DNA of 54,210 bases from an uncultured Aquiluna sp. (GCA_913775595.1 CAJYLB010000001.1:1191135-1245344), one strand, 5' to 3'. Positions 1-18,924 are shown, counted from the stretch's first letter. The notes: generated by a model not told the origin, from the letters alone. Program-made: numbers and translations.

Positions 1-230
1 ATGTGAGCGCCCTCGTAGGAGCCCTTTCGGGCATTGATGTTGTCGGTTTCCTGGTCAAAGATGTCGTTGATGCCATAGATCAATAGATTGAACGGGAAGG
101 TAACCCAGATCAGGATCGGCAGGATGTCCCAAGTCCAAAGGTAGCCTGCTAGCCACATGCCCATGACGGTTGTACCTATGGTGTTGACCCAAAGAACGGG
201 CCTCGAGATTTGAATTAGTCGCCAGAGCAC
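1..230 (-). CDS. UbiA-family prenyltransferase, lycopene elongase (CrtEb/LyeJ)-like; 5' part only, runs off the window
   Basis: Manual translation from GTG at 230: VLWRLIQISRPVLWVNTIG...FPFNLLIYGINDIFDQETDNINARKGSYEGAH. It has the SRP motif, the Asp-rich NDxxDxxxD motif and the NxRKG..EGA motif typical of C50-carotenoid elongases. Not in the ORF track. Confidence 0.75.
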   Translation of the reverse strand, partial: MLWRLIQISRPVLWVNTIGTTVMGMWLAGYLWTWDILPILIWVTFPFNLLIYGINDIFDQETDNINARKGSYEGAH

Positions 231-267
231 CCGTTCAGCCTACGGCCTCTCGGCAAAATGAACGTCT

Positions 268-281
268 TGCACAAACGTGCA
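268..281. promoter_or_regulatory. Palindromic operator TGCAC-AAAC-GTGCA, likely SorC-family site (related copies at 331, 3348, 4785)
   Basis: Perfect 5-4-5 palindrome upstream of the operon; the TGCACAAWYGT core recurs four times in the locus. Confidence 0.55.
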
Positions 282-363
282 CTTGCGGACCCTTATTTTC
301 ACCCCTGTGAATTGCCATAATTGGCCAAGCTGCACAATTGTCAGCAAATTTGTGAAGGAAATA

Positions 364-1374
364 ATGGCCACAGTTACACCTTTGTTCGCTCCCGAGCAGG
401 GTCCAATCTCAGCCAGCAAGGAGGCTGCAAGTGCAGCCCTGGAGTCTTTGCTGGCAATTCGCTTCTTTGAGGAGGCAGTAGACGGCCTCTTTGCCAGAGG
501 CCTGATGCACGGGACCATGCACCTTTCTATCGGGCAGGAGGCCGTAGCGACCGGAGTCTGCGCCGCGCTCAGAAAGAGCGACTACATAACATCAACCCAC
601 CGCGGACACTCGCACTGCATCGCCAAGGGTGCTGACCTGACTCGCATGATGGCGGAACTTCTTGCCAAGCAGACCGGCTACTGCCGAGGACGTGGTGGCA
701 GCATGCACATCGCAGATGTTGAGACAGGGAACCTGGGAGCAAACGGCATTGTTGCCGGAGGCATTCCCATTGCTGCTGGGGCTGCCCTAGCTCAGAAGAT
801 GCAGGGTAAAGACAACGTAGTGGTGTCTTTCTTTGGCGATGGTGCCACCAATGAGGGTGCGTTCCACGAGGCTTTGAACCTGGCCGCGGTTTGGGATCTA
901 CCGGTTGTCTTTGTCTGCGAGAACAACAAGTACGGCATGAGCTTCTCCACGGCAAAGAGCATGAAGGTCGAGAAGATCTCTGAGCGAGCTGCGGCATATG
1001 GCTTTCCGGGCGTGACGGTAGACGGCAACGACGTTGACGAAGTGTTTGCTGCAACCCAAGAGGCAGTGGCACGAGCCAGGTCTGGGGGTGGGCCAACCCT
1101 TATTGAGTGCCTTACCTACAGACACAAGGGCCACTCCAAGAGCGACAAGAACCTCTACCGCACCAAGGAGGAAATCGACTTCTGGAAGACGAAGGACCCA
1201 GTTGGGATCTTTGAGACCAAGCTGATCGACAATTCAGTGCTTTCTGCGGAAGAGGTTGAGCAGCTCACCCAAAAGGTTCGTGATGCGGTTCGTCTCGCAA
1301 TCCAGGAGGCAACTCAGGCACCGGATTCGGATCCAGCAGAGCTGCTTTCCTCTGTCTTTAGGCAGGTGGGCTAG
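364..1374 (+). CDS. TPP-dependent dehydrogenase E1 alpha subunit (AcoA/PdhA-like)
   Basis: [25 protein letters not shown]...N TPP motif, YRHKGHS. ATG at 364 follows AAGGAA; the ORF-track start at 277 is too long. Confidence 0.93.
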
Positions 1375-2364
1375 ATGACTGAGCGCATCATCACCTACGC
1401 GGAGGCTGTCCGCGAAGCAATTGGCCAGGCCATGGAGGCTGACAGCAACGTCTTCATGCTCGGGGAGGATATCGGGGTCTACGGAGGAGCGTTTGGCGTT
1501 TCCGGTGATCTCTACCACCGCTTTGGCGAGGAGCGCGTTCGCGATACGCCCATCTCGGAGCTAGGAATTGTGGGCGCTGCGGTTGGTGCCGCACTGGTTG
1601 GAATGAAGCCGATTGTCGAGATCCAGTTCTCTGACTTCACCGCTCAGGCCATGGATCAAATTGTCAATCAGGCCGCAAAGATTCACTTCATGCTCGGTGG
1701 TGAGCTGTCGGTGCCAATGGTTTTGCGAGCACCGTCCGGTTCGGGAACAGGTGCTGCAGCCCAGCACTCCCAGAGTCTCGAGGCGTGGTTCGCGCACGTT
1801 CCTGGGCTAAAGGTCGTGTTGCCATCATCGCCAGCCGATGCCAAGGGCTTATTGCTTTCAGCACTCGATGACCCTAACCCGGTCGTGGTCTTGGAGCACA
1901 AGCTCCTCTACAAGACCTCCGGTCATGTGCCAGAGGAAATGTATAAAACACCAATTGGAGTTTCCAATGTGGTTCGCGAGGGTAAAGACCTAACTATCGT
2001 TGCCACCGGTGTCATGGTTTCGAGGTCAATTGAAGCCGCAGCGCAACTTTCAGCAGAGGGCATCGAGGCGACCGTGATCGATGTTCGCACCCTGAGCCCC
2101 TTGGACATGGATCCAATAAATGACTCTGTGGCCAAAACCGGAAAGCTGATGCTCGTGCAGGAGGCCCCTAAGCACGTCGGCTACATGGCAGAGGTTGCGG
2201 CTCGGGTTTCTGAGGGCCCAGGTATTTACTCTCTCACCGAGCCGGTAACCAGGCTCTGTGGCATGGATGTTCCAATTCCATATGCCCCGCAGCTTGAGAA
2301 ATCGGTTGTCCCGCAGCTCGATGACATAGTCCAGGGTGCAAAGAGTCTTGTGAGGGGCATCTAA
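1375..2364 (+). CDS. TPP-dependent dehydrogenase E1 beta subunit (AcoB/PdhB-like)
   Basis: GEDIGVYGG, DTPISE, EIQFSDF, AAQHSQSLE motifs; abuts E1 alpha. Confidence 0.93.
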   Translation: MTERIITYAEAVREAIGQAMEADSNVFMLGEDIGVYGGAFGVSGDLYHRFGEERVRDTPISELGIVGAAVGAALVGMKPIVEIQFSDFTAQAMDQIVNQAAKIHFMLGGELSVPMVLRAPSGSGTGAAAQHSQSLEAWFAHVPGLKVVLPSSPADAKGLLLSALDDPNPVVVLEHKLLYKTSGHVPEEMYKTPIGVSNVVREGKDLTIVATGVMVSRSIEAAAQLSAEGIEATVIDVRTLSPLDMDPINDSVAKTGKLMLVQEAPKHVGYMAEVAARVSEGPGIYSLTEPVTRLCGMDVPIPYAPQLEKSVVPQLDDIVQGAKSLVRGI

Positions 2365-3452
2365 TGGCTCAGACACCGGTAGTGATGCCAAAGATGAGCA
2401 TGACTATGACCGAGGGCGAGGTCGTAGAGATCCTCGTCAAGGTTGGAGACAAGGTTGAAAAGGGTCAGGTAGTTGCGGTAGTTGGCACTGACAAAACCGA
2501 CATGGAGGTCGAGAGCGACCACGAGGGTGAGGTCACCGAGATTTCCTCCGGTCCCGGGGACGTCATTGAGGTTGGCGCGCCGCTATTTGTTCTAGAGACC
2601 GAGGGCGAGGACTTACTAGCCGGCATGTTTGGGGATGGGCCTGCCGCAGAGACGGTCGCAACTGAGCCGGTTGCGCAAGAGGTTCAGGCGCCCATTGCTG
2701 CTCCAGCACCTCAGGAGAGTTCGAGTGTCCTGGCAATGCCTGGGGCCAGGAAGGCGGCCAAGGAGCAGGGAATCGACCTATCCACAATTACCCCAGCCAG
2801 CCCCTCGGGTGTGATCAAGGTCACTGATCTACCGGCAGCCGGAAGCCGTGAAGAGGCTGCAAGGCACCAGGTTGCACGAGTTGTCGACACCTCGGCTCAG
2901 ATTCCTCAGTTCTCGTTGTCATCCACCATCTCCCTGACCACCGCTCTGTCCGCAGATGCAGTGGAAAGGTTTGTGGTTTTAGCGAGGGCTTGGGTCAGGA
3001 CCCTTCAGGCACGGCCCAGGCTCAACCAGCGTTTCTTGGACGGAGCGTTTTCAACCATTGACCAAATCCGCATCGCAGCGCTCGTGAAGACACCTTTGGG
3101 TTTTGTTGCTCCAACACTGGGAGCTGATTCCATCTCTGAGAGCTCTTGGGCAGAGAGTGCAAAGGCTGTTCTGGATTCAGCTAGGCAAAACAAGATCGCG
3201 CCCGAGAATCTTCAGCCAGCATCCACATCAATTACCGATCTGGGTGAATTTGGTATCAGGCAGGCAAATACCCTGCTGTTCCAGCCGCAGAGCTCGGGGT
3301 TCAATGTTGGTCAGATGCGAAGCGCTGGCGAAAACTACGAAATTGACTGCACAATTGTGATTGACCATAGAATTGCGGACCCGGGCGACGGAGCTGAGGC
3401 ACTAGCTTTCTTCGCCGCAGAGTTGCAGAAGGAGCTCGATGTCAACGGCTAG
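2364..3452 (+). CDS. Dihydrolipoamide acyltransferase E2 (divergent)
   Basis: Lipoyl domain (TDKTDMEV), peripheral-subunit-binding domain (MPGARKAAKEQGIDL), C-terminal DHRIAD catalytic motif. Confidence 0.85.
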   Translation: MAQTPVVMPKMSMTMTEGEVVEILVKVGDKVEKGQVVAVVGTDKTDMEVESDHEGEVTEISSGPGDVIEVGAPLFVLETEGEDLLAGMFGDGPAAETVATEPVAQEVQAPIAAPAPQESSSVLAMPGARKAAKEQGIDLSTITPASPSGVIKVTDLPAAGSREEAARHQVARVVDTSAQIPQFSLSSTISLTTALSADAVERFVVLARAWVRTLQARPRLNQRFLDGAFSTIDQIRIAALVKTPLGFVAPTLGADSISESSWAESAKAVLDSARQNKIAPENLQPASTSITDLGEFGIRQANTLLFQPQSSGFNVGQMRSAGENYEIDCTIVIDHRIADPGDGAEALAFFAAELQKELDVNG

Positions 3453-4410
3453 AGATCGCGCACTCATTGTCAAGGTCGCGCGCATGTATTACGAGCAAAA
3501 CATGAGCCAGGACCAGATCGCCAGGGCGCTCCTCACCAGCCGTTCAAACGTTTCAAGAATTCTCTCGGTTGCCAAAAAGCGGGGCATTGTCGAGATCAAA
3601 ATAAACGAGGCGACCAAGCGCGAAACTGACATTGAAGAGATGTTGATCAGCCGCTTCGGCCTTCACGCTGCAATGGTTGCAAAGGTGCCGAGGTCCACAA
3701 GCGACTACAAAGCAGTGGGTCAGCTGGCGGTTCAAAGTTTTCTTAGCCACCTAAAGCCTCGCGTGAAGGTGGCAATTAGTTGGGGTAGATCAATACAGGC
3801 GATGGTGGACGCCTTAGAGCCTGACAATCGGCCTGATCTGACCTTTATCCCCATCATGGGCGGCATGACGGCAATACCTTCTTCTTACAGTGGTGAGACC
3901 CTGATTCAGTCTTTGGCCGAGAAGTTTCACGCGCAGTACCAGGTGCTGCACGCGCCCACCATTGTTCAGTCCCCGGATATCAAGGTCGCGCTTATGAGAG
4001 AGCCCTCGGTAGCAGCGGTTATCGACTCTGCCCGCACCGCGGATGTTGCCTTTGTGGGCATTGGATCCAAGGGTGCTCACAGCTCCCAGCACATCTTGCA
4101 ATCTGCTGGTATCACTCCGGAGGAGAACCCCGAGTTCTTTGAGGCGTGGAGTGGGGATTTGGCTGGGAGATTCTTTGACAGGGATGGCAAGAGCATCAAC
4201 TCTCGACTTGATAACCGAACCGTCGGCCTAGAGCTTGGCGAGATTGCGAGGATTAAACGCGTGGTCGGTGTTGCTGCCGGAGAAGAGAAAACCGATGGAA
4301 TCCTCGCGGCACTTCGCGGGGGACTAATCTCGGAACTTGTCACGAGCTCCAATTGCGCACTCAAGCTCTTGGAAGCCGCGGAAAGCAAGACACTAGGAGA
4401 GCTGGTTTAG
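3439..4410 (+). CDS. SorC/DeoR-family sugar-binding transcriptional regulator
   Basis: VARMYYEQNMSQDQIA...SRSNVSRIL HTH, ISWGRS, AFVGIG, AALRGG motifs. Confidence 0.92.
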   Translation: MSTARDRALIVKVARMYYEQNMSQDQIARALLTSRSNVSRILSVAKKRGIVEIKINEATKRETDIEEMLISRFGLHAAMVAKVPRSTSDYKAVGQLAVQSFLSHLKPRVKVAISWGRSIQAMVDALEPDNRPDLTFIPIMGGMTAIPSSYSGETLIQSLAEKFHAQYQVLHAPTIVQSPDIKVALMREPSVAAVIDSARTADVAFVGIGSKGAHSSQHILQSAGITPEENPEFFEAWSGDLAGRFFDRDGKSINSRLDNRTVGLELGEIARIKRVVGVAAGEEKTDGILAALRGGLISELVTSSNCALKLLEAAESKTLGELV

Positions 4411-4797
4411 ATGGAAATTTTGATTTGGATCCTTTTTCTGATTGCGGTGATGTGGGTCTTCCAGCTCTATCTAGCCGTAAAGCAGTCCCAGCGTTTCTCT
4501 AACGACTTGCGCGAAATCCGCACTCCCGGAACCACGACAACTGTGGGGATGGGGGGTTATCGCTATCGCGGCGGCAGGGCATTTGTTGCCATGGCGCAAA
4601 AGGACGGGGAAGTTACCGGGGCAAGGATTCTCTCGGGCCTGACCGTATTTGCAAACTCAAAGCCATTTGAGGACATCGTGGGTCACAAACTGACCGATCT
4701 AGTAGAAGGCAAAGGCCTTGAAAATCAGAAGTTCAAGGTTGTTGAAGCTACCAAGCACGCGGCAAAAACTCTGCTTGATCAAAATGCACAAACGTGA
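4411..4797 (+). CDS. gutM: GutM/SrlM-like glucitol operon activator
   Basis: Hydrophobic N-terminus with Q..L...Q, GLTVFA motif, position beside the srl PTS genes. Confidence 0.75.
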   Translation: MEILIWILFLIAVMWVFQLYLAVKQSQRFSNDLREIRTPGTTTTVGMGGYRYRGGRAFVAMAQKDGEVTGARILSGLTVFANSKPFEDIVGHKLTDLVEGKGLENQKFKVVEATKHAAKTLLDQNAQT

Positions 4798-4888
4798 CAG
4801 CTCTAAGCACATTCACCTCCCAGCGATTCCGCTAGCGTAACGAGAAGCACGGTCAGAGTAGACCGTGTCTCGATCCAAAGGAGGGTTG

Positions 4889-5476
4889 ATGAATTTATTC
4901 GCCAGCGCTGACACGGTTGCCGAACCGGAAGGCGTATGGGGAGCGATTGCAGGTGGAGCTGAATACTTCATCGGTATCTTCAACCAAGGTGGTGAGGTCT
5001 TCTTTGGCCTCATGGGAGGAATCCTGCCTACCCTGGTTGTTCTGCTCACAGCTGTGAACGCTCTCATCCGACTAATTGGACCAGAGAAGATCGAAACGCT
5101 CGGAAAGAAAGCCGCGCAGCCCGGTCTCATTTGGTACCCAGTCCGCTACATGGTGCTGCCATTCTTGGCAGTATTCTTCCTAACGAACCCAATGGCTTAC
5201 ACCATTGGTCGTTTCCTACCAGAGCGTTTCAAGCCCGCTTTCTATGACTCAGCGGTCTCGTACGTTCACCCAATCACGGGTCTGTTCCCACACGCTAACC
5301 CAGGTGAGCTCTTCGTTTACCTAGGTATTGCAGCGGGAATCACCCAGCTCGGTCTAGGTCTTGGTGACCTCGCACTGCGCTTCCTGTTGGTTGGTCTTGT
5401 AGTCATCTTCATCCGAGGCATCGTGACCGAGTGGATCACCGCCAGGATGCTAGCTAGGAAGGAAGCGAAAGCCTAA
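4889..5476 (+). CDS. srlA: PTS glucitol/sorbitol-family EIIC component
   Basis: FFLTNPMAYT, GLFPHANPGELFVYLGIA motifs; ATG at 4889 after AAGGAGG. Confidence 0.9.
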   Translation: MNLFASADTVAEPEGVWGAIAGGAEYFIGIFNQGGEVFFGLMGGILPTLVVLLTAVNALIRLIGPEKIETLGKKAAQPGLIWYPVRYMVLPFLAVFFLTNPMAYTIGRFLPERFKPAFYDSAVSYVHPITGLFPHANPGELFVYLGIAAGITQLGLGLGDLALRFLLVGLVVIFIRGIVTEWITARMLARKEAKA

Positions 5477-6015
5477 TGGACGGACTAAATAAAGTTCTGG
5501 TCACTATTGGCCGCGGTGTAGGTGGAGTTGTTGGAACCCTTTACCAAGCAGGGCGCGACACAATCGACACCATCATCCGTAACATCCTGCCTTTCATGGC
5601 ATTCATTGCCTTCATTATCGGTCTGGTTCTTGCCACCGGTATTGGTGATGTCATTGCCAACGGCATCAAGGGACTAGCCGGCAACATCGTTGGTCTTTTG
5701 ATTGTCTCCGTGGTTTGTGCCATTCCGGTGCTATCACCGCTGCTGGGCCCAGGTGCTGTTATCGCACAGGTAGTGGGAACCCTGCTCGGTGTAGAGATCG
5801 GCCGTGGCAACATCCCACCTCAGATGGCTCTTCCAGCTCTATTCGCTATCAACCCTCAGGTTGGTTGTGACTTCATCCCAGTGGGCCTCGCCCTTGGAGA
5901 AGCTGAGCCAGAGACCGTCGAGGTCGGTGTACCAGCTGTTCTGTTCTCGCGACTCATTACCGGTCCGCTAGCCGTTGTTATTGCATACGTAGCTAGCTTC
6001 GGTATGTACAGCTAG
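5476..6015 (+). CDS. srlE: PTS glucitol/sorbitol EIIBC, C-terminal membrane half as a separate gene
   Basis: YQAGRDTID, ILPFMAF, LSPLLGPGAVIAQV, ALPALFAIN.QVGCDFIPVGL. Confidence 0.88.
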   Translation: MDGLNKVLVTIGRGVGGVVGTLYQAGRDTIDTIIRNILPFMAFIAFIIGLVLATGIGDVIANGIKGLAGNIVGLLIVSVVCAIPVLSPLLGPGAVIAQVVGTLLGVEIGRGNIPPQMALPALFAINPQVGCDFIPVGLALGEAEPETVEVGVPAVLFSRLITGPLAVVIAYVASFGMYS

Positions 6016-6022
6016 AAACAAA

Positions 6023-6077
6023 ACAATCCTTTCGGGGGTTGTCAGAGGATGGGTCATTCATTTGGCCCATCCTCTGA
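6023..6077 (+). other. Intergenic stem-loops between the two srlE halves
   Basis: ACAATCCT-TTCG-GGGGTTGT, then TCAGAGGATGGGTCA/TGGCCCATCCTCTGA (15 bp, one GU pair). Confidence 0.6.
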
Positions 6078-6128
6078 TTTACCCAAAGTCAGACTTCCAA
6101 AAAACAAAGAGGTTCAAGGAGCAAACAA

Positions 6129-6500
6129 ATGGCAGAGTACAAGTCAGTCAAAATTGAAAAGGGCCCTGGCGGCTGGGGTGGACCGCTAACCATCAAGCCC
6201 ACAGCAGACCGCCCATACATCTACTCGGTTACCGGTGGCGGAATTCACCCGCTGGCAGCGAAGATCGCTGAGCTTACCGGCGGCGAAGCATTTGACGGCT
6301 TCAACTCTTCTAAGCCCTTTGACCAGATTGCTGTTGCGGTGATCGACTGTGGTGGTACTGCCCGCATCGGCGTTTACCCGATGAAGAAGGTGCCAACCGT
6401 CGACATCCACGCAACCAGCCCCGCAGGCCCGCTTGCGATGTTTATCACCGAAGACCTGTTGGTCACCGGTGTGAAGCTGGACAACATAAACCCAGCCTAA
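6129..6500 (+). CDS. srlE: PTS glucitol/sorbitol EIIB domain (SrlE N-terminal half as a separate gene)
   Basis: KGPGGWGGPL, VTGGG, phosphorylatable IDCGGTAR.GVYP motif; GGAG RBS. Confidence 0.88.
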   Translation: MAEYKSVKIEKGPGGWGGPLTIKPTADRPYIYSVTGGGIHPLAAKIAELTGGEAFDGFNSSKPFDQIAVAVIDCGGTARIGVYPMKKVPTVDIHATSPAGPLAMFITEDLLVTGVKLDNINPA

Positions 6501-6523
6501 AAACTTAGAAAGAAAACGAATCG

Positions 6524-6892
6524 ATGACAGTGCTTTACAAGAGCACAGTCACCGAGATGGGTGAGCTCGTCCCGACTTTTGTAGCCGAAGGCATGCTTGT
6601 CTTCTTTGGTGACGGCGCTCCAGAGGAACTCAAAACCTTCTGCATCATCCACAAAGTGGAGCATCAGGAGGGCCAGGTCAAGCCTGGCGACAAAGTAGCA
6701 ATTGACGGCCACGAGTTCGAGGTCTTGGCCGTGGGATCTGTCGCAAATGACAATCTCTACAACCTCGGACACCTCAACTTGAAGGCGGATGGCAACACCG
6801 TTGCCGATCTGCCGGGGGATGTTTGCATAGCCAAGGTTGATCTGCCTGAGATCAAAGTTGGCAGCAAGCTTGAAATAACTAGGAGCAACTAA
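6524..6892 (+). CDS. srlB: PTS glucitol/sorbitol EIIA component
   Basis: MLVFFGDGAPEEL..FCIIH, AVGSVANDNL.NLGHL, LPG motifs. Confidence 0.9.
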   Translation: MTVLYKSTVTEMGELVPTFVAEGMLVFFGDGAPEELKTFCIIHKVEHQEGQVKPGDKVAIDGHEFEVLAVGSVANDNLYNLGHLNLKADGNTVADLPGDVCIAKVDLPEIKVGSKLEITRSN

Positions 6893-8169
6893 TGCAGTAC
6901 CGCCTGAAGCTAGCCGAGCTAGCCGAGAAGCAAGGCAGGCCTTTCAGAATCGCACTGGTGGGGGCCGGACAGATGGGTAGAGGCTTTGCCTCGCAGTCTC
7001 ACAGGCTTGGCCTGCAGGTTGCTGTTGTGGCAGACATTGCTCCCGAGCGAATCACTCAGGCCTTTGTTGACTTGGGCCTTGGAGAGCCGGTCATCTCCTC
7101 AGATGCTACTGAGCTAAATGCTGCGATTGCTGCGGGCAAGCCAGCCGGAACTACGGATGCTTCGGTTGCGTCCAGCCTCGATGTGGATGTCGTGGTTGAG
7201 GCAACTGGAGTTGCTGCCATTGGTGCCGACGTGATGTATCACGCGCTGAAGGCAAAGAAGCATGTTGCCACCTTGAACGTAGAAGCCGATGTCACGGTTG
7301 GTCCCATGCTGCACAGGATTGCTAAGGAGAACGGTGTTCTCTACAGCGTCTGTAATGGCGATGAGCCAGCGGAGGCCAAGGAGCTGGTTGACTTCGCAAG
7401 GGATCTCTCCTTTGAGGTCGTGATGGCAGGCAAGGGTAAGAACAATCCGTTCGAGCCACACTCAAACCCCGACACAGTGGCGGAGCGCGCAGCCAAGAAG
7501 CACATGAACCCAAAGATGCTTGCTTCGTTTACCGACGGCTCAAAGACCATGATCGAGATGGCGGCGCTCGCAAACGCCACAGGCCTGAAGCTGACAAGGC
7601 GCGGCATGATTGGGCCCGAGTCTTCTCGCACGACCCTTCAGGACGTTTTCAAGCCCGCTTCTGAGGGCGGGGTCCTAGAGGAGACCGGGGTCGTTGACTA
7701 CTGCACCGGCGATGTCGCTCCTGGAGTATTTGTTGTCATCAAGACCGACAGTCCATATGTTGCAGAGGAGATGAGTTACCTCTCAATGGGAGCCGGTCCA
7801 TACTTTGCCCTATACCGCCCCTATCACCTCGCCTCCGTTGAGGCACCGATGACGGTGGCGAAAATGCTGGTTGATGGTTATGAGACCCTGACCTGCGACA
7901 GCTTCATGACCGAGGTCATTGCCTCTACCAAAAAAGAGCACAAAGCCGGAGAAAAGTTCGACGGCATTGGCGGCTATTCAGCAAGGGGAGTTGTTGATCG
8001 GGTCGAAGACGCAAGGAAAGAGAACCTCGTGCCAATTGGACTGCTGCAGAACGCAGTTGCGAAGCGCGATTTACCAATCGATCACCTCGTAACTTACGAT
8101 GATGTTGAGCTTGACGAAGGCGCGACTATCTTCAAGCTGCGCAAAGAGCAAGAGGCCCTCGGAATCTAG
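6892..8169 (+). CDS. NAD(P)-dependent oxidoreductase, homoserine-dehydrogenase-like with C-terminal SAF domain (COG4091 type)
   Basis: GAGQMG Rossmann motif, NVEADVTVG, GDEP, GKGKNN, DGSKTMIEM, DGIGGY...P.GL SAF tail. Confidence 0.85.
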   Translation: MQYRLKLAELAEKQGRPFRIALVGAGQMGRGFASQSHRLGLQVAVVADIAPERITQAFVDLGLGEPVISSDATELNAAIAAGKPAGTTDASVASSLDVDVVVEATGVAAIGADVMYHALKAKKHVATLNVEADVTVGPMLHRIAKENGVLYSVCNGDEPAEAKELVDFARDLSFEVVMAGKGKNNPFEPHSNPDTVAERAAKKHMNPKMLASFTDGSKTMIEMAALANATGLKLTRRGMIGPESSRTTLQDVFKPASEGGVLEETGVVDYCTGDVAPGVFVVIKTDSPYVAEEMSYLSMGAGPYFALYRPYHLASVEAPMTVAKMLVDGYETLTCDSFMTEVIASTKKEHKAGEKFDGIGGYSARGVVDRVEDARKENLVPIGLLQNAVAKRDLPIDHLVTYDDVELDEGATIFKLRKEQEALGI

Positions 8170-8176
8170 GAGTCAA

Positions 8177-8434
8177 ATGGCAGACAAGCCAGAAATTTGC
8201 GGTTTCTGCCATTCTGACAAGGGCCGCGAGATTATCTACGTCGGCAAAATTGAGTACGGTTCTAGGTGTGTGACTTGCGGTGCCACTCAGCAGGCAACCC
8301 AGCGTGAGATGAAACAGTCGGTTCGTGAAACTACCCAGGTCGGATTTGAGAACTCTCCAATAGGTATTGTCTCCAGAATGCTCAAAGATCCTTACAAGTT
8401 CTTCACGGGAAAGAGCCAAGACCCAAAGGACTAG
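8177..8434 (+). CDS. Small zinc-ribbon-like protein (CxxC...CxxC), 85 aa
   Basis: AGGAG RBS before ATG 8177; CGFC and CVTC pairs. Confidence 0.6.
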   Translation: MADKPEICGFCHSDKGREIIYVGKIEYGSRCVTCGATQQATQREMKQSVRETTQVGFENSPIGIVSRMLKDPYKFFTGKSQDPKD

Positions 8435-8475
8435 CGACTACTTGTTATTTTGTCTAGACCCCCTAGACTATTTCT

Positions 8476-9522
8476 ATGACAGAAATTCAGTTTGGACTGG
8501 ACACCTTCGGCGACATTTCACTTGATGACTCTGGCAATCTCAAAAGTGCTGGCCAGGTAATCAGGGATGTAGTTGCGCAGGCAGTCCATGCTGAACAGCT
8601 CGGTTTTGACAGTTTCAACATCGGCGAGCACCACCGGGACGACTACGCCATCAGCGCCCCAGACACAGTCTTGGCTGGCATTGCCACAGTCACCGATCGA
8701 ATCAAGATTGGCACTGGAGTCACCGTTCTGTCTTCCGAAGACCCAGTAAGGGTCTACCAGCGCTTTGCAACGATCGATGCGCTCTCAAACGGACGAGCTG
8801 AGATTACTGCGGGTCGAGGTTCGTTCACCGAGTCCTTTCCGCTGTTTGGATACGACCTCAGCGAGTATCACGTTCTATTTGAAGAAAAGCTGGAGCTTCT
8901 GGTTGAGCTGCTAAAGGAGAACGCCGTGACATGGCAGGGCACAAAGCGAGCCGGGCTTACCAATCAAGAGGTTTATCCCAAGACCGAGCGCGGCAGCATC
9001 CCATTGCGAGTCGGGGTTGGTGGATCACCAGAATCAGTGCTGAGAGCGGCAAGGCTTGGTATTCCTATGGCCCTTGCAATCATCGGAGGAGATCCCGCGC
9101 GCTTCGCACCTTTCGCGAATCTCTACAGAGAGTCCCTTGCCAAGCTCGGCAAGGAGCAGCTGCCAGTTTCGATCCACTCCCCAGGGCACATTGCTGAGAC
9201 AGACGAGCAGGCAATTGAAGAGCAGTGGCCACACTACGAAACTGCCTTTGGCCGTATTGGTCGGGAGCGAGGCTGGGGGCCAACTACCAAGATGCACTTC
9301 ATTTCTGAGGTGAATGGCGGGTCTTTGTACGTCGGGTCGCCAGAGACCGTTGCAAGAAAAATTGCTTATGCGGTTAGCGCCTTGGGTGCCACGAGGTTTG
9401 ACTTCAAGTACGCCAATGGACCTATGCCTCACAGCAAGCTAATGAAATCTCTAGAGCTCTATGGAACCCAGGTAATTCCGAGGGTTAGAGAGCTATTGGC
9501 CGAGGAAAAAGCAACCGTTTAG
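8476..9522 (+). CDS. LLM-class (luciferase-like) flavin-dependent oxidoreductase
   Basis: GEHH, DPVRVYQRFATID.LS.GRAE, GRGSFTESFPLFGY. Confidence 0.92.
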   Translation: MTEIQFGLDTFGDISLDDSGNLKSAGQVIRDVVAQAVHAEQLGFDSFNIGEHHRDDYAISAPDTVLAGIATVTDRIKIGTGVTVLSSEDPVRVYQRFATIDALSNGRAEITAGRGSFTESFPLFGYDLSEYHVLFEEKLELLVELLKENAVTWQGTKRAGLTNQEVYPKTERGSIPLRVGVGGSPESVLRAARLGIPMALAIIGGDPARFAPFANLYRESLAKLGKEQLPVSIHSPGHIAETDEQAIEEQWPHYETAFGRIGRERGWGPTTKMHFISEVNGGSLYVGSPETVARKIAYAVSALGATRFDFKYANGPMPHSKLMKSLELYGTQVIPRVRELLAEEKATV

Positions 9523-9667
9523 AGCCGCTTATTCATGGCTTCGAATATTTCCGAAATGTTCGGGCTTGTTCTTTATTGTTCGTTTGTGATTATTTTGTTA
9601 TGAAATCAGCGACCTGACCCCTAATTGGGGGATTAGTCTTTTCCCAAGAGTCCAATTAGGAGGTTCA

Positions 9668-10963
9668 ATGCTGAACAAAATCGCGAACCACGAAGTTGAC
9701 CGTCGCCTTGTTTTGAAGGGTGCGGCAGCTGGTGGTCTCGGTATCGCTGGTGCCACCATGCTTGCAGGTTGCGCTAGTGGAACCGGCCCAATCTCGTTCG
9801 GTGCCCGCACCGTTGACGAGTCCCCAACAATCCAGCTTCAGGGTTTGGTTGATGCCTATGTAGCGAAGACCGGTAACGAGGTCACCTACAACGCAACCGA
9901 GTCAAACGCCTTCCAGAACAACTTGTCGCAGTACCTCCAGGGAACCCCTGACGACTGCTTCCAGTGGATGGCTGGATACCGCATGCAGTTCTTCGCTGCA
10001 CAAGACCTTCTCGTCGACATCTCAGATGTTTGGGACGAGATCGGTGACCAGTACAACGAGAGCTACAAGATTGCTTCAACCGGTCTAGACGGCAAGCAGT
10101 ATTTCGTTCCTCAGAGCTGGTACCCATGGGGTCTTCACTTCCGCAAGTCAATGATGGCTGAGATCGGAATGAACCCAGAAGACATCTACAACTGGGATGA
10201 CTTCATGTCAGCCCTTGGTGAGCTCCAGGCTCAGGGCCTTATTGGTCTCGCAGCTGCCGACAAGGGTGGCTGGGAAGCAATGGGTACCTTCGACATCCTC
10301 AACGCTCGTATCAACGGATACCAGTTCCACGTTGACCTTCTAGGTGGCCGTGAGAAGTGGACCGACGACAGGGTTAAGGAAGTCTTCCGCCACTGGGAGA
10401 TGCTGCTTCCGTACCAGAACAGCAACGTTCTTGACCTCGAGTGGGATGGCGCCATGCAGCTTCTACTGCAGCGTCAGGCCGGGTTCTTCATGAACGGTTC
10501 ATGGTTCGGTGGAAACTTCCTCGAGCAGAGCCAGGAAGACTACGACGACCTGATGATCGTTCCATTCCCTGAGATCAACCCAGACCACGGACGCGACACA
10601 GTCGACGCTCCGATTGATGGCTTCTGTGTTGCAAAGAATGGTGCAAACAACGAGGGTGGTAAGGACCTAATCAAGTTCGCTGGTGACATGGAGGGTGTAC
10701 AGGCAATGCTTGACACCGGTATCCCAATGACCTCAGCCAACAACGGTCAGGACCGTTCGAGCTACGACGCCTTCCAGAACGCACAGCTTGCTGTGATGAA
10801 CGAGGCTAAGTACATCACCCAGTTCCTAGACCGCGACACTCGCCCTGACTTCGCAGGCCCAGTAGTTGGCCCTGCGTTCCAGAGCTGGTTCAAGGACCCA
10901 TCGAGCGTTGACTCGATCCTTGAGTCCCTACAGTCGCAGTGGGACGCTCTTCCTCCGCTGTAA
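9668..10963 (+). CDS. Carbohydrate ABC transporter substrate-binding lipoprotein (Tat signal)
   Basis: DRRLVLK twin-arginine motif, LAGC lipobox, CUT1-type sequence, followed by two permeases. Confidence 0.9.
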   Translation: MLNKIANHEVDRRLVLKGAAAGGLGIAGATMLAGCASGTGPISFGARTVDESPTIQLQGLVDAYVAKTGNEVTYNATESNAFQNNLSQYLQGTPDDCFQWMAGYRMQFFAAQDLLVDISDVWDEIGDQYNESYKIASTGLDGKQYFVPQSWYPWGLHFRKSMMAEIGMNPEDIYNWDDFMSALGELQAQGLIGLAAADKGGWEAMGTFDILNARINGYQFHVDLLGGREKWTDDRVKEVFRHWEMLLPYQNSNVLDLEWDGAMQLLLQRQAGFFMNGSWFGGNFLEQSQEDYDDLMIVPFPEINPDHGRDTVDAPIDGFCVAKNGANNEGGKDLIKFAGDMEGVQAMLDTGIPMTSANNGQDRSSYDAFQNAQLAVMNEAKYITQFLDRDTRPDFAGPVVGPAFQSWFKDPSSVDSILESLQSQWDALPPL

Positions 10964-10986
10964 GCAGAGGCTAAAAGCAACAGAGT

Positions 10987-11910
10987 ATGACAACAGAAAC
11001 GGCGGCGCTGAGCAAATCACAAGTAGCTCGGCGTCGCCGTTTCTTTTCAAAGCAAGACAAGGTAACCCTCGGATTCTTTATCGGGATACCGACTTTTCTT
11101 CACGTAGCGCTGGTCTGGTTTCCAGCGCTTGCCACAATCGGCCTCTCGTTCACCTACTGGACCGGCATCCGGATCGAAGACATCGTCTGGGCCGGAATGG
11201 CAAACTACGAGAACATATTTTTCAACACACCAATTTTCTGGGACGCCATTCGAGTTAATACGATCTGGCTCCTCTGGTTCTTCTTCATAGCCACGCCACT
11301 GGGCGTGCTGCTCGCTTATCAAATTGACCGCGAGATACGTGGTCACAAGATTTACCAATCGGCCTACTTCTTGCCGGTTGTGCTCTCACTGGCTGTTACA
11401 GGAATTATCTGGAACTTCTTGCTTCGTCCCGACGGCTTCGTAAACGGCCTGCTGGGGTTGCCGATATCAGAGGCAGTCTCCTTCTTTGGGGATGACCGCT
11501 ACAACATCTGGGTAATCATGATCATGGCCTCATGGAGGCACATCGGCTACATCATGCTTCTCTACTTGGCTGGCCTAAAGGCAGTCGATAGTGCCCTAAG
11601 AGAGGCCGCCACCATTGACGGTGCGACTGAGTGGCAGTCGTTTAGAAAAGTAGTTTTCCCTGCGATGAAGCCGGTAAACATCATCGTTATCGTGATCACA
11701 ATCATCGAGAGCCTCAGGGCCTTCGACATGGTCTATATCATCTACGGCTCTTCTGGAGGCCTCCCGATTTTGGGTGTGCTGGTGTTCAACAACATCGCGG
11801 GTGAGGGAGCTTCTATGAAGGGCGCTGCCTACGCGGTGATTCTCTTCCTGCTCTCGATTGTGCCGATCATCACCTATCTGCAGCAGCAGTTTAAGGATGA
11901 CGTCCGATGA
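10987..11910 (+). CDS. Carbohydrate ABC transporter permease
   Basis: EAA loop (LREAATIDGA); multiple TM segments. Confidence 0.92.
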   Translation: MTTETAALSKSQVARRRRFFSKQDKVTLGFFIGIPTFLHVALVWFPALATIGLSFTYWTGIRIEDIVWAGMANYENIFFNTPIFWDAIRVNTIWLLWFFFIATPLGVLLAYQIDREIRGHKIYQSAYFLPVVLSLAVTGIIWNFLLRPDGFVNGLLGLPISEAVSFFGDDRYNIWVIMIMASWRHIGYIMLLYLAGLKAVDSALREAATIDGATEWQSFRKVVFPAMKPVNIIVIVITIIESLRAFDMVYIIYGSSGGLPILGVLVFNNIAGEGASMKGAAYAVILFLLSIVPIITYLQQQFKDDVR

Positions 11911-12809
11911 CCACGACGATAAAGGTTCCAGAGGTTACAGGGCGCAAGAAGAAGCTTCACGCGCAGCAAATCAAAGACCGCATTATTTCCATCTTTATTG
12001 GAGTCTTTGCCGTTGTCTGGGTCTTCCCAATTGTCTGGACGCTCTGGTCTAGCCTCAGGCCCTACGCAGAGATCCGCGCTGGTGGAGTCTTCTCGCCACC
12101 TCAAGAGCTGGGCCTTTTCAACTATGGAGAAGCTGTAGACAGGATGAACCTGCCGCTGTATTTCGCAAATACAGCTTTGATCACCCTTCCTGCCGTATTC
12201 CTGATTCTGCTCTTTGGCTCTTTGATCGCCTTCGTAGTTACGAGGTACTCTTTCCGCTTCAACGTGGCGATGCTTTTGCTATTTACAGCGGGAAACATGC
12301 TTCCTCCCCAGCTTGTATTCATCCCGGTATTCAAGATGTATCTTGCACTGGGCGACCTGTTTGGAGACAGAAGGCTTTTGTATGACAACCACTGGGGTGT
12401 GGTGCTGATCCACGTTGCCTTCCAGATGGGATTTGCCACCTTCGTCCTCTCCTCATATATGAAGACGATTCCGAAGGAGATTTCAGAGTCCGCGATGGTC
12501 GATGGTGCGAGCGTATTCACCCACTACTTCAGGGTCATGCTTCCACTTCTTAGGCCACCACTTGCAAGTCTCGGTGTTCTCATGATCACCTGGATCTACA
12601 ACGACTTCTTCTGGGCGCTGGTGCTCATGTCAAATGACAGCAAGAGGCCAATCACTTCTGCCCTTGGAAGACTCCAAGGCGAATTCGTGACCGACTATAA
12701 CCTGCTCGCGGCCGGCGCGATGATTGCGGCGTTGCCGACCTTGATCGTGTTCTTTGTGCTTCGCAAGCAGTTCGTTGGTGGACTAACGCTGGGCTCAACT
12801 AAGGGCTAA
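11907..12809 (+). CDS. Carbohydrate ABC transporter permease
   Basis: IPKEISESAMVDGAS EAA loop; 4-bp overlap with the upstream permease. Confidence 0.92.
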   Translation: MTTTIKVPEVTGRKKKLHAQQIKDRIISIFIGVFAVVWVFPIVWTLWSSLRPYAEIRAGGVFSPPQELGLFNYGEAVDRMNLPLYFANTALITLPAVFLILLFGSLIAFVVTRYSFRFNVAMLLLFTAGNMLPPQLVFIPVFKMYLALGDLFGDRRLLYDNHWGVVLIHVAFQMGFATFVLSSYMKTIPKEISESAMVDGASVFTHYFRVMLPLLRPPLASLGVLMITWIYNDFFWALVLMSNDSKRPITSALGRLQGEFVTDYNLLAAGAMIAALPTLIVFFVLRKQFVGGLTLGSTKG

Positions 12810-13994
12810 CTAGGCCCGAACGCTTACGCTCTCGTAGCCTCGAAGAACAAATGTAGGCCTTCTGATTGGTTCTGCTGCGAGTTCCAGCTTCGGGAATCTC
12901 TCTAGCAGCATTGGAAGCGATGTAGTCATTTCCATGCGGGCAAGCGGGGCGCCAATACAGAAGTGAATGCCAGCACCAAAACCGATGTGTGGGTTTGGTG
13001 ATCTTGAAAGGTCTAGCTCGTCAGGGTTCTCGAAAATGGCTTCGTCTCGGTTAGCACTTCCGAGAAGCGCGGCTATCTTCTTTCCCTTCGGCACCATCAC
13101 CCCGCCGACCTCGGTGTCCTCTGTTGCCGTGCGCTCAAACAGGTGAAGCGGAGCATCAAATCTAAGGAACTCATCAACAGCAGTTGCCGCCATACCCCTT
13201 GGGTCTGCAATAAGGCTCTGCCATTGCGACTCTGTCTTTAGGGCAGCCACCATTCCGTTGCCAAAACCATTGACGCTCGCCTCGTGACCTGCGTTCAATA
13301 GCAGAACGCAGGTCGCTATGAGTTCTCTCGCGCTGAGCTTTTCTCCCTGCTCTTCAACGAGGGCAAGCTCCGAGATCAGGTCGCTGCCGGGGTCCTTTTG
13401 TCTTTCGACCATTAGGCCATGGACGTACGCGGCAAACTCATCACTTGCCTGTCTCGCAGCGGCTTTCTCCTGCTCCGTAGGCGACGGCTCATACATCTTC
13501 ACAATTGCTTGTGACCAGGGCCTGAGTAGGTGCTCATCGCTCTCTGGGAATCCGAGCAGCTCGGCTATGACCATTACGGGAAGCGGCTCTGCGAAGTCAG
13601 CAATTAGGTCGAAGGTCTCGTTATTTTGCACCTTGGCTTCGATGCGCTGCAACAGTCGCTGCGTGATCCTTTCGACGTCGGGCCTCAGCTCTTCAATGCG
13701 CTTCGGGTTGAAGGCTTTCATAACGAGGCTTCTTAGTCTGGTGTGTTTGGGTGGCTCGGAGTCCAGAATGGAATCTGCATGTAGGTAGTTGAAGGACTCC
13801 CAGGCATCCTCTGGCTCTTTCGGACTAAAGATTCGACCCAGCGTCCTCGTTCTTAAGACCTGGTTTGCATCTTTGTATTTTGCAGCTAGAAACAACTGGC
13901 TTTCGTCGTGCCAGATTGGCCCGCTGTGAGTTCTCAGCTCAGCAAGCTGAGGGTAGGGGTCTGCAACAAACTCGTGATCGGCGAAGCTAAACAT
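12810..13994 (-). CDS. Cytochrome P450
   Basis: FGAGIHFCIG heme motif, EFLR (ExxR), I-helix AGHEAS, PPKHTRLR. Confidence 0.95.
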   Translation of the reverse strand: MFSFADHEFVADPYPQLAELRTHSGPIWHDESQLFLAAKYKDANQVLRTRTLGRIFSPKEPEDAWESFNYLHADSILDSEPPKHTRLRSLVMKAFNPKRIEELRPDVERITQRLLQRIEAKVQNNETFDLIADFAEPLPVMVIAELLGFPESDEHLLRPWSQAIVKMYEPSPTEQEKAAARQASDEFAAYVHGLMVERQKDPGSDLISELALVEEQGEKLSARELIATCVLLLNAGHEASVNGFGNGMVAALKTESQWQSLIADPRGMAATAVDEFLRFDAPLHLFERTATEDTEVGGVMVPKGKKIAALLGSANRDEAIFENPDELDLSRSPNPHIGFGAGIHFCIGAPLARMEMTTSLPMLLERFPKLELAAEPIRRPTFVLRGYESVSVRA

Positions 13995-18071: not shown

Positions 18072-18923
18072 CTAGTGGCCTTTGGGGTGCCAGACGGTCT
18101 TGACCTCCATAAGGTCAAGTATGTGCTGGAGGTTACCCTTTGATTCAGATCTTGGGTAGGTCCCCGGCCTGATAACCCTCTTCACGGTGGTTGCGGCAGA
18201 TATCTCAAGCTCGGTTGGGTTTGAAGTTCCCTCAAGGTCAACCGCGTTCACGTCCATGTGGCCGACTAGCCAGCTGGATAGCTCACTCTCTTTGCCGCTG
18301 AGGATATTCACAACACCGCCCGGCAGATCGCTAGTCGCCAAGACCTCGCCAAAACTTAGTGCTGGCAGAGACAGCTTTTCGCTGGTTACCACAACCACGG
18401 TGTTGCCCGAGAGAATCGCGGGAGCAATCGTGTTCACAAAGCCAACGAGACCGCTGTCCTGAGGAGCAAAGGCGCCCACAACCCCCGTGGGCTGATTGGT
18501 GGAGATGTTGAAGTATGGGCCCGCAACAGGGTTCATGCTGCCTGCTACCGAGTCAATCTTGTCGGTCCATCCCGCATGCCAAACCCAAGAGTCGATGGCG
18601 GCGTTGACCTCAGCCTCAGCCTGCCTCTGGGTCTTGCCCGTTAGAAGGGCGAGCTCAGCGACAAACTGCTCTTTTCTCCCCTCCAGCATCTCGGCAATGC
18701 GGTAGAGAACCTGGCCGCGGTTATAGGCGCTGGCCGATGCCCAACCGGCCTGGGCAGCTCTTGCCGCCTGAACCGCATCGCGAACGTCCTTGCGAGATGC
18801 GAGGGCAACGTTTGCCACATGCCTCGACTTGGAATCTTTTACTTCGTAGCTGCGACCCGATTCGCTTCTTGGGAACTTGCCCGCGATGAAAAGCTTGTAG
18901 GTCTTCTTCACATCTAAACGCAA
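18072..18923 (-). CDS. Short aldehyde-dehydrogenase-family protein (NAD-binding domain only)
   Basis: KTYKLFIAGKFPRSESGR, LPGGVVNILSG, EVKTVWHP; lacks the catalytic Cys domain. Confidence 0.85.
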   Translation of the reverse strand: MRLDVKKTYKLFIAGKFPRSESGRSYEVKDSKSRHVANVALASRKDVRDAVQAARAAQAGWASASAYNRGQVLYRIAEMLEGRKEQFVAELALLTGKTQRQAEAEVNAAIDSWVWHAGWTDKIDSVAGSMNPVAGPYFNISTNQPTGVVGAFAPQDSGLVGFVNTIAPAILSGNTVVVVTSEKLSLPALSFGEVLATSDLPGGVVNILSGKESELSSWLVGHMDVNAVDLEGTSNPTELEISAATTVKRVIRPGTYPRSESKGNLQHILDLMEVKTVWHPKGH

Positions 18924-18924
18924 T

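Follow-up and report, generated by a model that had tools for sequence, protein, structure and literature searches.

The final 54 kb of the genome of an uncultured freshwater Aquiluna sp. contain an operon that we propose to be an accessory catabolic route for 2-C-methyl-D-erythritol (ME), a polyol of plants and microbes, or for a closely similar 2-C-methyl-tetritol, a reading to which slightly better than even chances can be given. The operon was studied in a stretch of 54,210 nucleotides (GCA_913775595.1, CAJYLB010000001.1:1191135-1245344), referred to below as the window. It consists of 11 tightly packed genes on the plus strand, from position 364 to position 8434. The listing of the open reading frames (ORFs) and the profile scans recovered all the genes named in the original prediction, made from the sequence alone, on the same strand and in the same order. 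They encode the two subunits of a thiamine pyrophosphate (TPP)-dependent dehydrogenase (E1alpha and E1beta, together E1ab), a lipoyl-bearing E2, a SorC-type regulator, the activator GutM, four proteins of a glucitol-family (Gut) phosphotransferase system (PTS), an oxidoreductase and a small zinc-ribbon protein. The broader conclusion, namely that the operon serves a polyol other than sorbitol and that the oxidoreductase and E1/E2 act in one pathway, is one that we hold with high confidence.

The oxidoreductase is a member of the DRL/DXR-II family

The original prediction had described the oxidoreductase as a SAF enzyme of the COG4091 type. An NAD(P)-dependent oxidoreductase is indeed encoded, but the label was abandoned, the family being PF21135 (DRL_cat). 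With 3upy and 3upl, structures of the Brucella DRL, the protein can be aligned along its full length (3upy_A, E-value 5.8e-92, query residues 10-423). According to PMC3847144, this family represents the type II of DXR and interconverts DXP (1-deoxy-D-xylulose 5-phosphate) and MEP (2-C-methyl-D-erythritol 4-phosphate). Complementation of a dxr mutant was seen with 11 members of one clade, some of them from organisms that lack the MEP pathway, and not with the sister clades DLO1 and DLO2 (PMC3847144). The residues K191, K193 and T229 are given there as anchors, and His250 as the position that marks the DXR-II clade against the DLO clades. The same source finds the DXR-II clade beside DXR-I in many genomes, and also where the MEP pathway is absent, and calls the coexistence with DXR-I an unexplained redundancy; a review of February 2026 (PMC13001223) still describes the distribution of Dxr-II as having no defining pattern. 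The DRL of the window has kept K191, K193 and T229, the anchors of the substrate and of fosmidomycin, together with the dimer residues E174, F178, R320 and Y322.

A quick IQ-TREE phylogeny was obtained from 98 rows, none of which is a labelled DLO1 or DLO2 sequence. The window protein is included in an actinobacterial clade of 31 rows (support 98), nearly all of them PTS-linked. The ingroup that holds it also comprises the homologues of B. anthropi, M. ciceri, Chelativorans, B. safensis and Halanaerobium. A clade of 10 rows, nine of which are E1-linked (Mesorhizobium, Chelativorans, Bosea and the plasmid pRM41A), has the B. anthropi homologue as its sister. Five homologues with 34-37% identity are localized on long outgroup branches, and we assume that this outgroup corresponds to DLO.

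One actinobacterial family of small genomes, f40, is informative about the activity. A DRL homologue is present in 22 of its 22 genomes. The five genomes sampled (G072, G102, G132, G186 and G324) all have IspG and show no DXR-I domain, and DRL is probably the only DXR of this family. Because these genomes combine IspG and DRL without DXR-I, we predict that the actinobacterial DRLs very likely carry out the DXP/MEP reaction. The context of an f40 DRL (L154) is unrelated to sugars, with PsbP-like, ApbE and RnfC neighbours.

Conservation of the operon in close relatives

The set of close relatives was composed of 61 related genomes, 36 of which are other genomes of the genus, and 15 regions were fetched. 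The DRL family was detected in 21 of the 61 genomes and in 15 of the 36 same-genus genomes, so the operon is accessory; in 20 of these 36, no block was detected. The same ten genes, in the same order, are present in all nine fetched same-genus loci and in a genome of another family (G039), with identities of 52% for DRL, 68% for E1alpha and 73% for E1beta. In the five loci where DRL is represented only by a distant homologue (34-37% identity), no partner gene is present. E1alpha with at least 66% identity was found in 17 of the 61 genomes, the next-best matches being at most 47% identical, and 16 of the 17 also have DRL. Two genomes stand out as exceptions: G029, where DRL is cut off at the end of a contig, and G031, which is treated below with the points that weigh against the ME reading.

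Distribution of the module across phyla

A search with a 7-sequence alignment yielded 80 species-representative loci in which DRL has 38-97% identity. The partner genes were detected by tblastn within 10 kb, with at least 50% identity for E1ab. Over the 80 loci, E1ab is present in 31, the Gut PTS in 25, both in 17 and neither in 41. When only the 39 loci flanked on each side by 8 kb or more are considered, the counts are 19 for E1ab, 15 for the PTS and 13 for both, with six loci having E1 only, two the PTS only and 18 neither.

The module is found in Actinomycetota, Bacillota, Chloroflexota and Alphaproteobacteria, and additionally on two plasmids. Its carriers include Planktophila, Nocardia, Mycolicibacterium, Streptomyces, Cryobacterium, Kineosporia, Neobacillus, Brevibacillus, Salinicoccus, Salibacterium and Halanaerobium, two metagenome-assembled genomes (MAGs) of Caldilineaceae and Rubrobacteraceae, and many Alphaproteobacteria. 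In the Alphaproteobacteria, an ABC transporter and a kinase are found in place of the PTS, in the arrangement SorC-ABC-DRL-E1a-E1b-E2-PfkB; a PfkB gene is present in eight of the 16 loci with E1 only. Concerning the plasmids, pRM41A of S. meliloti carries a kinase, an ABC transporter, SorC, DRL, E1alpha, E1beta, E2, LpdA and LipA. On the Priestia plasmid, GutM and the PTS adjoin E1alpha, E1beta, E2, LpdA, SorC, an MFS transporter, a second SorC, DRL and an FGGY kinase. Judged from gene order, the uptake modules are interchangeable and E1ab/E2 stays with DRL, be it under a PTS or under an ABC transporter with a kinase.

Among 301 Actinomycetota genomes, 42 have both E1alpha and DRL, four have E1alpha only, four have DRL only and 251 have neither. 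These counts rest partly on the unpublished genomes G077 and G178, which are both among the 20 genomes (of the 42, and from five families) where E1alpha and DRL are at most 5.5 kb apart.

An IspD-like gene adjoins DRL in 10 of 26 loci with E1 and PTS (the identity being only 27% in three) and in four of six PTS loci with short flanks; in a further locus (L061), a DRL-IspD pair has neither PTS nor E1 within 10 kb. For all 11 IspD-like proteins tested, the best model was ispD, with 140-165 bits versus 54-94 bits for ribitol-5-phosphate cytidylyltransferase, both being below their cut-offs.

Functions encoded elsewhere in the genome

The Aquiluna genome is a single contig of 1,245,344 bp, 97% complete, which ends with the window. 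A copy of the oxidoreductase with 97% identity is found in an Aquiluna sp. MAG. As had been anticipated, E3, EI and HPr are encoded outside the window, with HPr and EI adjacent at genome positions 70144-71981 and LpdA at 547145. HPr is over its cut-off, and EI, with 331 bits, is just under its own of 341.7. LpdA is single and adjoins an E2 elsewhere in the genome. The predicted absence of srlD holds for the whole genome, where the best tblastn match of the E. coli SrlD has 25% identity and 58 bits; no match in the genome was obtained with the E. coli GutQ either. SrlR-like matches with 27-30% identity are present elsewhere in the genome, the regulator of the operon being of the SorC type.

The genome also encodes an AceE-type pyruvate dehydrogenase (PDH; 1318 bits), Kgd, and a second E1alpha-beta/E2 set, whose E1alpha, E1beta and E2 are 32%, 40% and 25% identical to those of the window. 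Since AceE, this second set and Kgd are present, we regard the E1ab/E2 of the window as a fourth and accessory lipoyl-dependent complex of this very small genome, distinct from the housekeeping PDH; since neither SrlD nor GutQ was found, no plain sorbitol pathway is encoded. DXS, DXR-I and IspD are all encoded elsewhere in the genome, and DRL is therefore not required here for biosynthesis.

Features of the E1/E2 complex

The profiles detected in the window both an E1alpha-beta of the PDH-like or Aco type and a lipoyl-bearing E2. With the PDH E1alpha model TIGR03182, E1alpha obtains 373 bits, below the cut-off of 393.85; the best E2 model gives 120 bits for a cut-off of 445, and the PDH equivalog level is not reached. 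The nearest solved structures to E1 are PDH E1 of the mitochondrial type, and no structure named acetoin dehydrogenase is among the PDB sequence matches listed for E1. The E1alpha of the window is 54-75% identical to the DRL-linked E1alpha of other phyla.

E2 evolves fast: within the genus its identity is 49-58%, reaching 73% in the closest genome, versus 77-93% for E1alpha and E1beta. Four forms of E2 were distinguished: one with a canonical catalytic domain (L119), one with a lipoyl domain and an alpha/beta-hydrolase (L132), which we take to be the AcoC type, the divergent form of the window, where the DHR motif is kept, and the form of a Planktophila sp. (L060), where the catalytic His of this motif is lost and the sequence reads DLN.

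Proposed pathway

The suggestion that the substrate is not sorbitol is supported by the absence of srlD and by the linkage of E1ab/E2 to the oxidoreductase across phyla. The original prediction had further supposed that a polyol phosphate is oxidised to a ketol, which E1/E2 then cleaves into an acyl-CoA and an aldehyde, and the comparative evidence favours this scheme. As the oxidoreductase belongs to the DXR-II/DRL family, the proposal can be sharpened to the conversion of MEP into DXP and of DXP into acetyl-CoA and glyceraldehyde 3-phosphate (GAP). The gene content, the families, the conserved linkage and the lack of SrlD are observed, whereas the nature of the substrate, the direction in which DRL works and the cleavage of DXP by E1 are what we infer.

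The Gut-family PTS would take up ME and deliver MEP, with EI and HPr coming from elsewhere in the genome. DRL/DXR-II would run the DXR reaction backwards (MEP + NADP+ giving DXP + NADPH). Because DXP is a methyl ketol like acetoin, the AcoAB-like E1alpha-beta would split it at C2-C3 into GAP and hydroxyethyl-TPP, the reverse of the carboligation by DXS. The hydroxyethyl group would then be oxidised onto the lipoyl arm of E2 to give acetyl-CoA, and the single LpdA would reoxidise the lipoamide. The formation of acetyl-CoA, an irreversible step, would pull the unfavourable reverse DXR step. SorC, whose ligand is probably MEP or DXP, and GutM would control the operon.

Several lines of evidence point to this route. 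The sorbitol PTS of Salmonella was reportedly found by Testa in 2004 to transport ME, and Yokota is said to have described in 1986 how 1-deoxyketoses are formed by the pyruvate and the acetoin dehydrogenase. The clusters hold only functions for uptake, phosphorylation, DRL and E1/E2, with or without E3, so that the products must be central metabolites, which fits acetyl-CoA and GAP. ME is also favoured because IspD-like genes adjoin DRL, and because the interconversion of DXP and MEP is the only activity shown for the clade (PMC3847144). A mutant AceE makes DXP in vivo, according to PMC3424233. In the literature searched, which included few subscription journals, neither the catabolism of ME nor a catabolic function of DXR-II was found to be described, and the same holds for an enzyme of the acetoin dehydrogenase type that cleaves DXP; within these bounds, the pathway is probably not yet described in print.

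A more far-reaching idea, to which we give a little less than even chances, is that DXR-II would be primarily catabolic. With a complex that could be named "DXP dehydrogenase (acetyl-transferring, GAP-forming)", it would reverse the MEP pathway's two initial steps, and its biosynthetic use, as in Brucella-like bacteria or in the f40 family, would be a secondary co-option.

Points against the proposal and rival explanations

A number of observations weigh against the ME reading. The equilibrium of DXR favours MEP. The DRL of the window has an Ile at the signature position His250. In the 27 rows with E1 and PTS, position 250 is H in 10, I in nine, N in three, Y in three and L in one, and position 229 is T in 20, A in six and S in one. 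The ingroup DRLs also occur in a second context, (SorC/RpiR)-SIS-Zn-ADH-DRL-FGGY kinase, where Zn-ADH is a zinc-dependent alcohol dehydrogenase (L086, L088, L100 and relatives); these clusters, found in Chloroflexota, Clostridia and Spirochaetota, include one with two DRL paralogues and a split transketolase (L088). A part of the DRL family may act on other sugar phosphates, and this second context suggests another undescribed sugar or polyol route.

Other points of this kind concern E1/E2. The score of E1alpha is just under the PDH cut-off, so an activity of the window E1 on pyruvate is possible. The other 22 of the 42 actinomycetotal genomes with both genes all belong to the f40 family and have E1alpha and DRL on different contigs, and the DRL inspected in one of them (G072) is in an unrelated context; for this family, the distribution of the two genes says nothing on a joint pathway. 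We had considered the proteins with at least 50% identity to the E1alpha and E1beta of the window as a DRL-specific orthologue group, which was rejected in view of the separate f40 contigs and of the four genomes without DRL. Consequently, linkage and not orthology is reported for E1ab. Two genomes have E1ab-E2 with 52-61% identity to the window in the absence of DRL: in G087 (L150), beside a ROK kinase, Zn-ADH, SorC and a lipoate ligase, and in G096 (L151), with an IspD-like gene and a short-chain dehydrogenase, a Gut PTS being about 6 kb away. Finally, G031 (L147, G031:C1:104000-123000, about 6640-13120) has E1a-E1b-E2-SorC (79%, 82%, 53% and 63% identity, respectively) in a genome with no DRL. 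There, EIIA_2, a Lac/Cel-type IIB and an EIIC-GAT permease, a PTS of the Gat/Asc type, replace GutM, the Gut PTS and DRL. This locus may be a variant that imports the ketol directly, for example 1-deoxyxylulose.

The same logic could apply to another substrate, such as a 1-deoxy-alditol, another branched tetritol or pentitol, or an isoprene-derived isomer of 2-methyltetrol, whose ketol phosphate would be converted into an acyl-CoA and an aldose phosphate. At position 250, and to some extent at 229, the window clade deviates from the DXR-II signature, which would fit such a substrate, as would the DRL-family members clustered with SIS, Zn-ADH, FGGY and transketolase genes and the pairing of E1ab orthologues with other upstream enzymes where DRL is missing; the specificity of a Gut-family PTS, moreover, is not readable from sequence. 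We nevertheless consider this alternative rather unlikely, given that the linked cytidylyltransferases look like IspD, that DRL seems to serve the f40 family as sole DXR, and that DXP/MEP is the only activity in print for the clade (PMC3847144). Ordinary oxidation of hexitol or pentitol phosphates, besides, already yields central metabolites and would make E1/E2 superfluous. An operon devoted mainly to salvage appears improbable. ME would be converted to MEP and enter isoprenoid synthesis via IspD, DRL would provide DXP for thiamine and pyridoxal, and E1/E2 would remove the excess. A streamlined genome of 1.245 Mb would profit from it, and many actinobacterial loci show a linkage between DRL and an IspD-like gene, L061 having the DRL-IspD pair alone. 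The operon of the window, however, has no IspD yet a complete E1ab/E2, the genome retains DXS and DXR-I, and the own LpdA and LipA of some clusters represent an investment typical of a pathway for carbon and energy.

It is hardly credible that DRL would simply take the place of SrlD in an ordinary sorbitol operon, an unrelated acetoin or pyruvate dehydrogenase operon being upstream by chance. E1ab-E2 remains beside DRL where an ABC transporter and a kinase replace the PTS, the gene order is kept in another family (G039), and within the genus the block occurs or is missing as a unit in 16 of 17 genomes. In the window itself, the regulator is localized between E2 and GutM with coding regions that overlap or abut, in a genome already equipped with AceE, a second E1ab/E2 and Kgd. 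These facts outweigh in our opinion the 39-54% identity of the PTS to the E. coli SrlA/E/B, the presence of GutM, the closeness of the E1alpha score to the PDH cut-off and the tight packing of genes everywhere in this streamlined genome.

Organization and expression of the operon

The features of the operon are listed in the following table. The junctions are overlaps or gaps of 0-23 nucleotides, except for the 67 nucleotides before the first IIC gene and the 113 nucleotides before the IIB gene. The sigma-70-like promoter matches are consensus matches only, three being found for 3.7 expected from shuffled sequences. No RNA family of Rfam, and hence no riboswitch for TPP or another ligand, was detected across the whole window, and a search for inverted repeats with a seed of 6 gave no candidate SorC operator, either in 200-400 or in 4780-4880.

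Features of the operon and its borders (positions in the window)
Feature	Position	Strand	Evidence or remark
Divergent gene upstream of the operon	3-230	-	ORF listing
Intergenic region 5' of E1alpha	231-363	+	Sigma-70-like consensus match at 338-365
E1alpha (TPP-binding subunit, heterotetrameric E1 of the AcoA or PDH-like type)	364-1374	+	PF00676, 311 bits
E1beta	1375-2364	+	PF02779 and PF02780; NF006667, 364 bits, above the cut-off of 321
E2 (lipoyl domain, E3-binding domain, divergent acyltransferase domain)	2364-3452	+	2-oxoacid_dh weak, 58 bits; DHR motif kept
SorC/DeoR(Bacillus)-type sugar-phosphate-binding transcription regulator	3439-4410	+	PF04198, 216 bits
GutM-like activator	4411-4797	+	PF06923, 56 bits
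PTS IIC, SrlA-like	4865-5476	+	PF03608, 241 bits; NF049923, 230 bits, above the cut-off of 150
PTS IIC, C-terminal half of SrlE, encoded ahead of the IIB half	5476-6015	+	SrlE model positions 158-330
Hairpin between the SrlE halves	6042-6077	+	15-bp stem, 93% complementary, in the 113-nucleotide spacer
PTS IIB, N-terminal half of SrlE	6129-6500	+	SrlE model positions 1-118
PTS IIA, SrlB-like	6524-6892	+	PF03829, 122 bits
NAD(P)-dependent oxidoreductase of the DRL/DXR-II family	6892-8169	+	PF21135 DRL_cat, 226 bits
Small zinc-ribbon ORF	8177-8434	+	85 amino acids, CxxC...CxxC; AGGAG 5 nucleotides upstream of the start
Terminator-like hairpin and T-rich tail after the small ORF	8452-8468	+	Consensus match only

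The PTS genes first labelled "EIIC2" and "EIIB" are indeed components of the system, but both are halves of SrlE, split and in swapped order. All the Gut PTS profiles (PF03608, PF07663, PF03612 and PF03829) exceed their cut-offs by a wide margin. SrlA passes its equivalog cut-off, and the SrlE halves and SrlB are below the full-length NCBIfam cut-offs. The identities to the E. coli proteins are 52% for SrlA, 54% for the IIC half of SrlE, 50% for its IIB half and 39% for SrlB. For the SorC-type regulator, DeoR (188 bits) and LsrR (134 bits) come closest among the NCBIfam models, without reaching their cut-offs. Concerning the zinc-ribbon ORF, its presence was verified but not its start at 8099, the ribosome-binding motif and the CxxC pairs making 8177 the most likely start. 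This ORF matches no Pfam family and is found 3' of DRL in eight of nine same-genus loci. A resemblance to the N-terminal extension of an IspD-like ORF (L066), seen as weak tblastn matches, was dropped, the BLASTP E-value being 16.

Expression was considered from contigs of four RNA-library runs, which belong to three studies. DNA may be present in libraries of this kind, and contigs are not to be equated with transcripts. Contigs with at least 99% identity bridge E1a-E1b and E1b-E2, and others bridge every later junction down to that of DRL with the small ORF. These contigs across all junctions weakly suggest that the operon is expressed and that E1/E2 is co-transcribed with the PTS, in favour of the original prediction. 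The contigs break in the hairpin spacer between the SrlE halves, with loose ends at 6055. In run X3, a seawater RNA library, contigs with a depth of 600-1200 and about 92% identity cover the IIC genes only (4713-6012). They seem to derive from a relative, whose PTS permease genes would be highly represented. Because the X3 depth comes from the contigs of a relative, RNA-library depth was left out of the gene ranking.

Downstream of the operon, the region 8476-12809 encodes a monooxygenase of the LLM class (TIGR03858, over its cut-off) followed by a sugar ABC transporter. Both are found near the operon in most relatives, at a variable distance and with insertions between, and were therefore taken as a separate unit. 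The window also contains a rhodopsin gene (PF01036, 14902-15660, minus strand), as expected for a planktonic actinobacterium of the Luna type, and a gene similar to tocopherol cyclase (22199-23185). In the region 18072-20352 (minus strand), a truncated aldehyde dehydrogenase ORF of 283 amino acids (profile positions 12-232 of 461) directly follows a full-length copy of 475 amino acids and may be a remnant or part of a split gene.

Implications and comparison with known systems

If the ME reading is true, the operon represents a new pathway for a carbon source, with a new substrate for the 2-oxoacid/acetoin dehydrogenase superfamily, and a physiological reason is given for the puzzling "redundant" DXR-II enzyme. 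ME would be a metabolite exchanged between phototrophs or plants that use the MEP pathway and heterotrophs, including streamlined planktonic actinobacteria and bacteria with rhizobial plasmids. On the more far-reaching view of DXR-II as primarily catabolic, abundant bacteria of freshwater, sea, soil and plants could feed on ME, perhaps also on isoprene-derived 2-methyltetrols. Imported ME could moreover bypass DXS and DXR, which suggests a bearing on the escape of bacteria from inhibitors of both steps.

The enterobacterial operon srlAEBD-gutM-srlR-gutQ resembles that of the window by its SrlA/SrlE/SrlB-like PTS, by GutM and by the need for the general EI and HPr. It differs in several respects: the window has neither SrlD nor GutQ, its regulator is of the SorC type whereas SrlR is of the DeoR type, SrlE is split with its halves swapped, and DRL and E1ab/E2 are added. 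With the Brucella DXR-II/DRL (3upl, 3upy), the window protein shares the fold family PF21135, a full-length alignment, the anchor and dimer residues and the ingroup of the tree. The role proposed here is catabolic and reversed, from MEP to DXP, whereas that of the Brucella enzyme is biosynthetic; the window protein has furthermore an Ile at His250, a PTS/E1 operon and a genome with DXR-I.

The likeness to AcoA/AcoB/AcoC/AcoL lies in an E1alpha-beta of the heterotetramer type, acting with a lipoyl E2, by which a methyl ketol would be broken down to an aldehyde and an acetyl group. An E1alpha with 61% identity is found beside Zn-ADH, as in butanediol/acetoin clusters. In contrast to the acetoin system, the substrate in the window would be the phosphorylated C5 ketol DXP, giving GAP and not acetaldehyde. 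The window operon is also devoid of E3 and of an AcoR-type regulator, and the 2-oxoacid_dh domain of its E2 is divergent. With DXS and DXR, the proposed route would share its intermediates (GAP, hydroxyethyl-TPP, DXP and MEP) and the TPP chemistry at C2-C3 of DXP. The direction would be the opposite, DRL is non-homologous to DXR and E1ab is only distantly related to DXS. The route would be irreversible through a lipoyl-dependent oxidation, rather than through a decarboxylation as for DXS.

A last parallel is the Lsr pathway (LsrK, LsrR, LsrG and LsrF), in which a 1-deoxy C5 sugar is imported and phosphorylated, and the resulting phospho-autoinducer-2 is sensed by a SorC-family regulator and converted into acetyl-CoA and a triose phosphate. 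The cleavage is catalysed there by a thiolase-like enzyme of aldolase fold and not by a TPP/lipoyl complex, and the transporter, the kinase and the isomerase differ from the proteins of the window. The SorC-type regulator of the window, for its part, matches the LsrR model, at a score below the cut-off.

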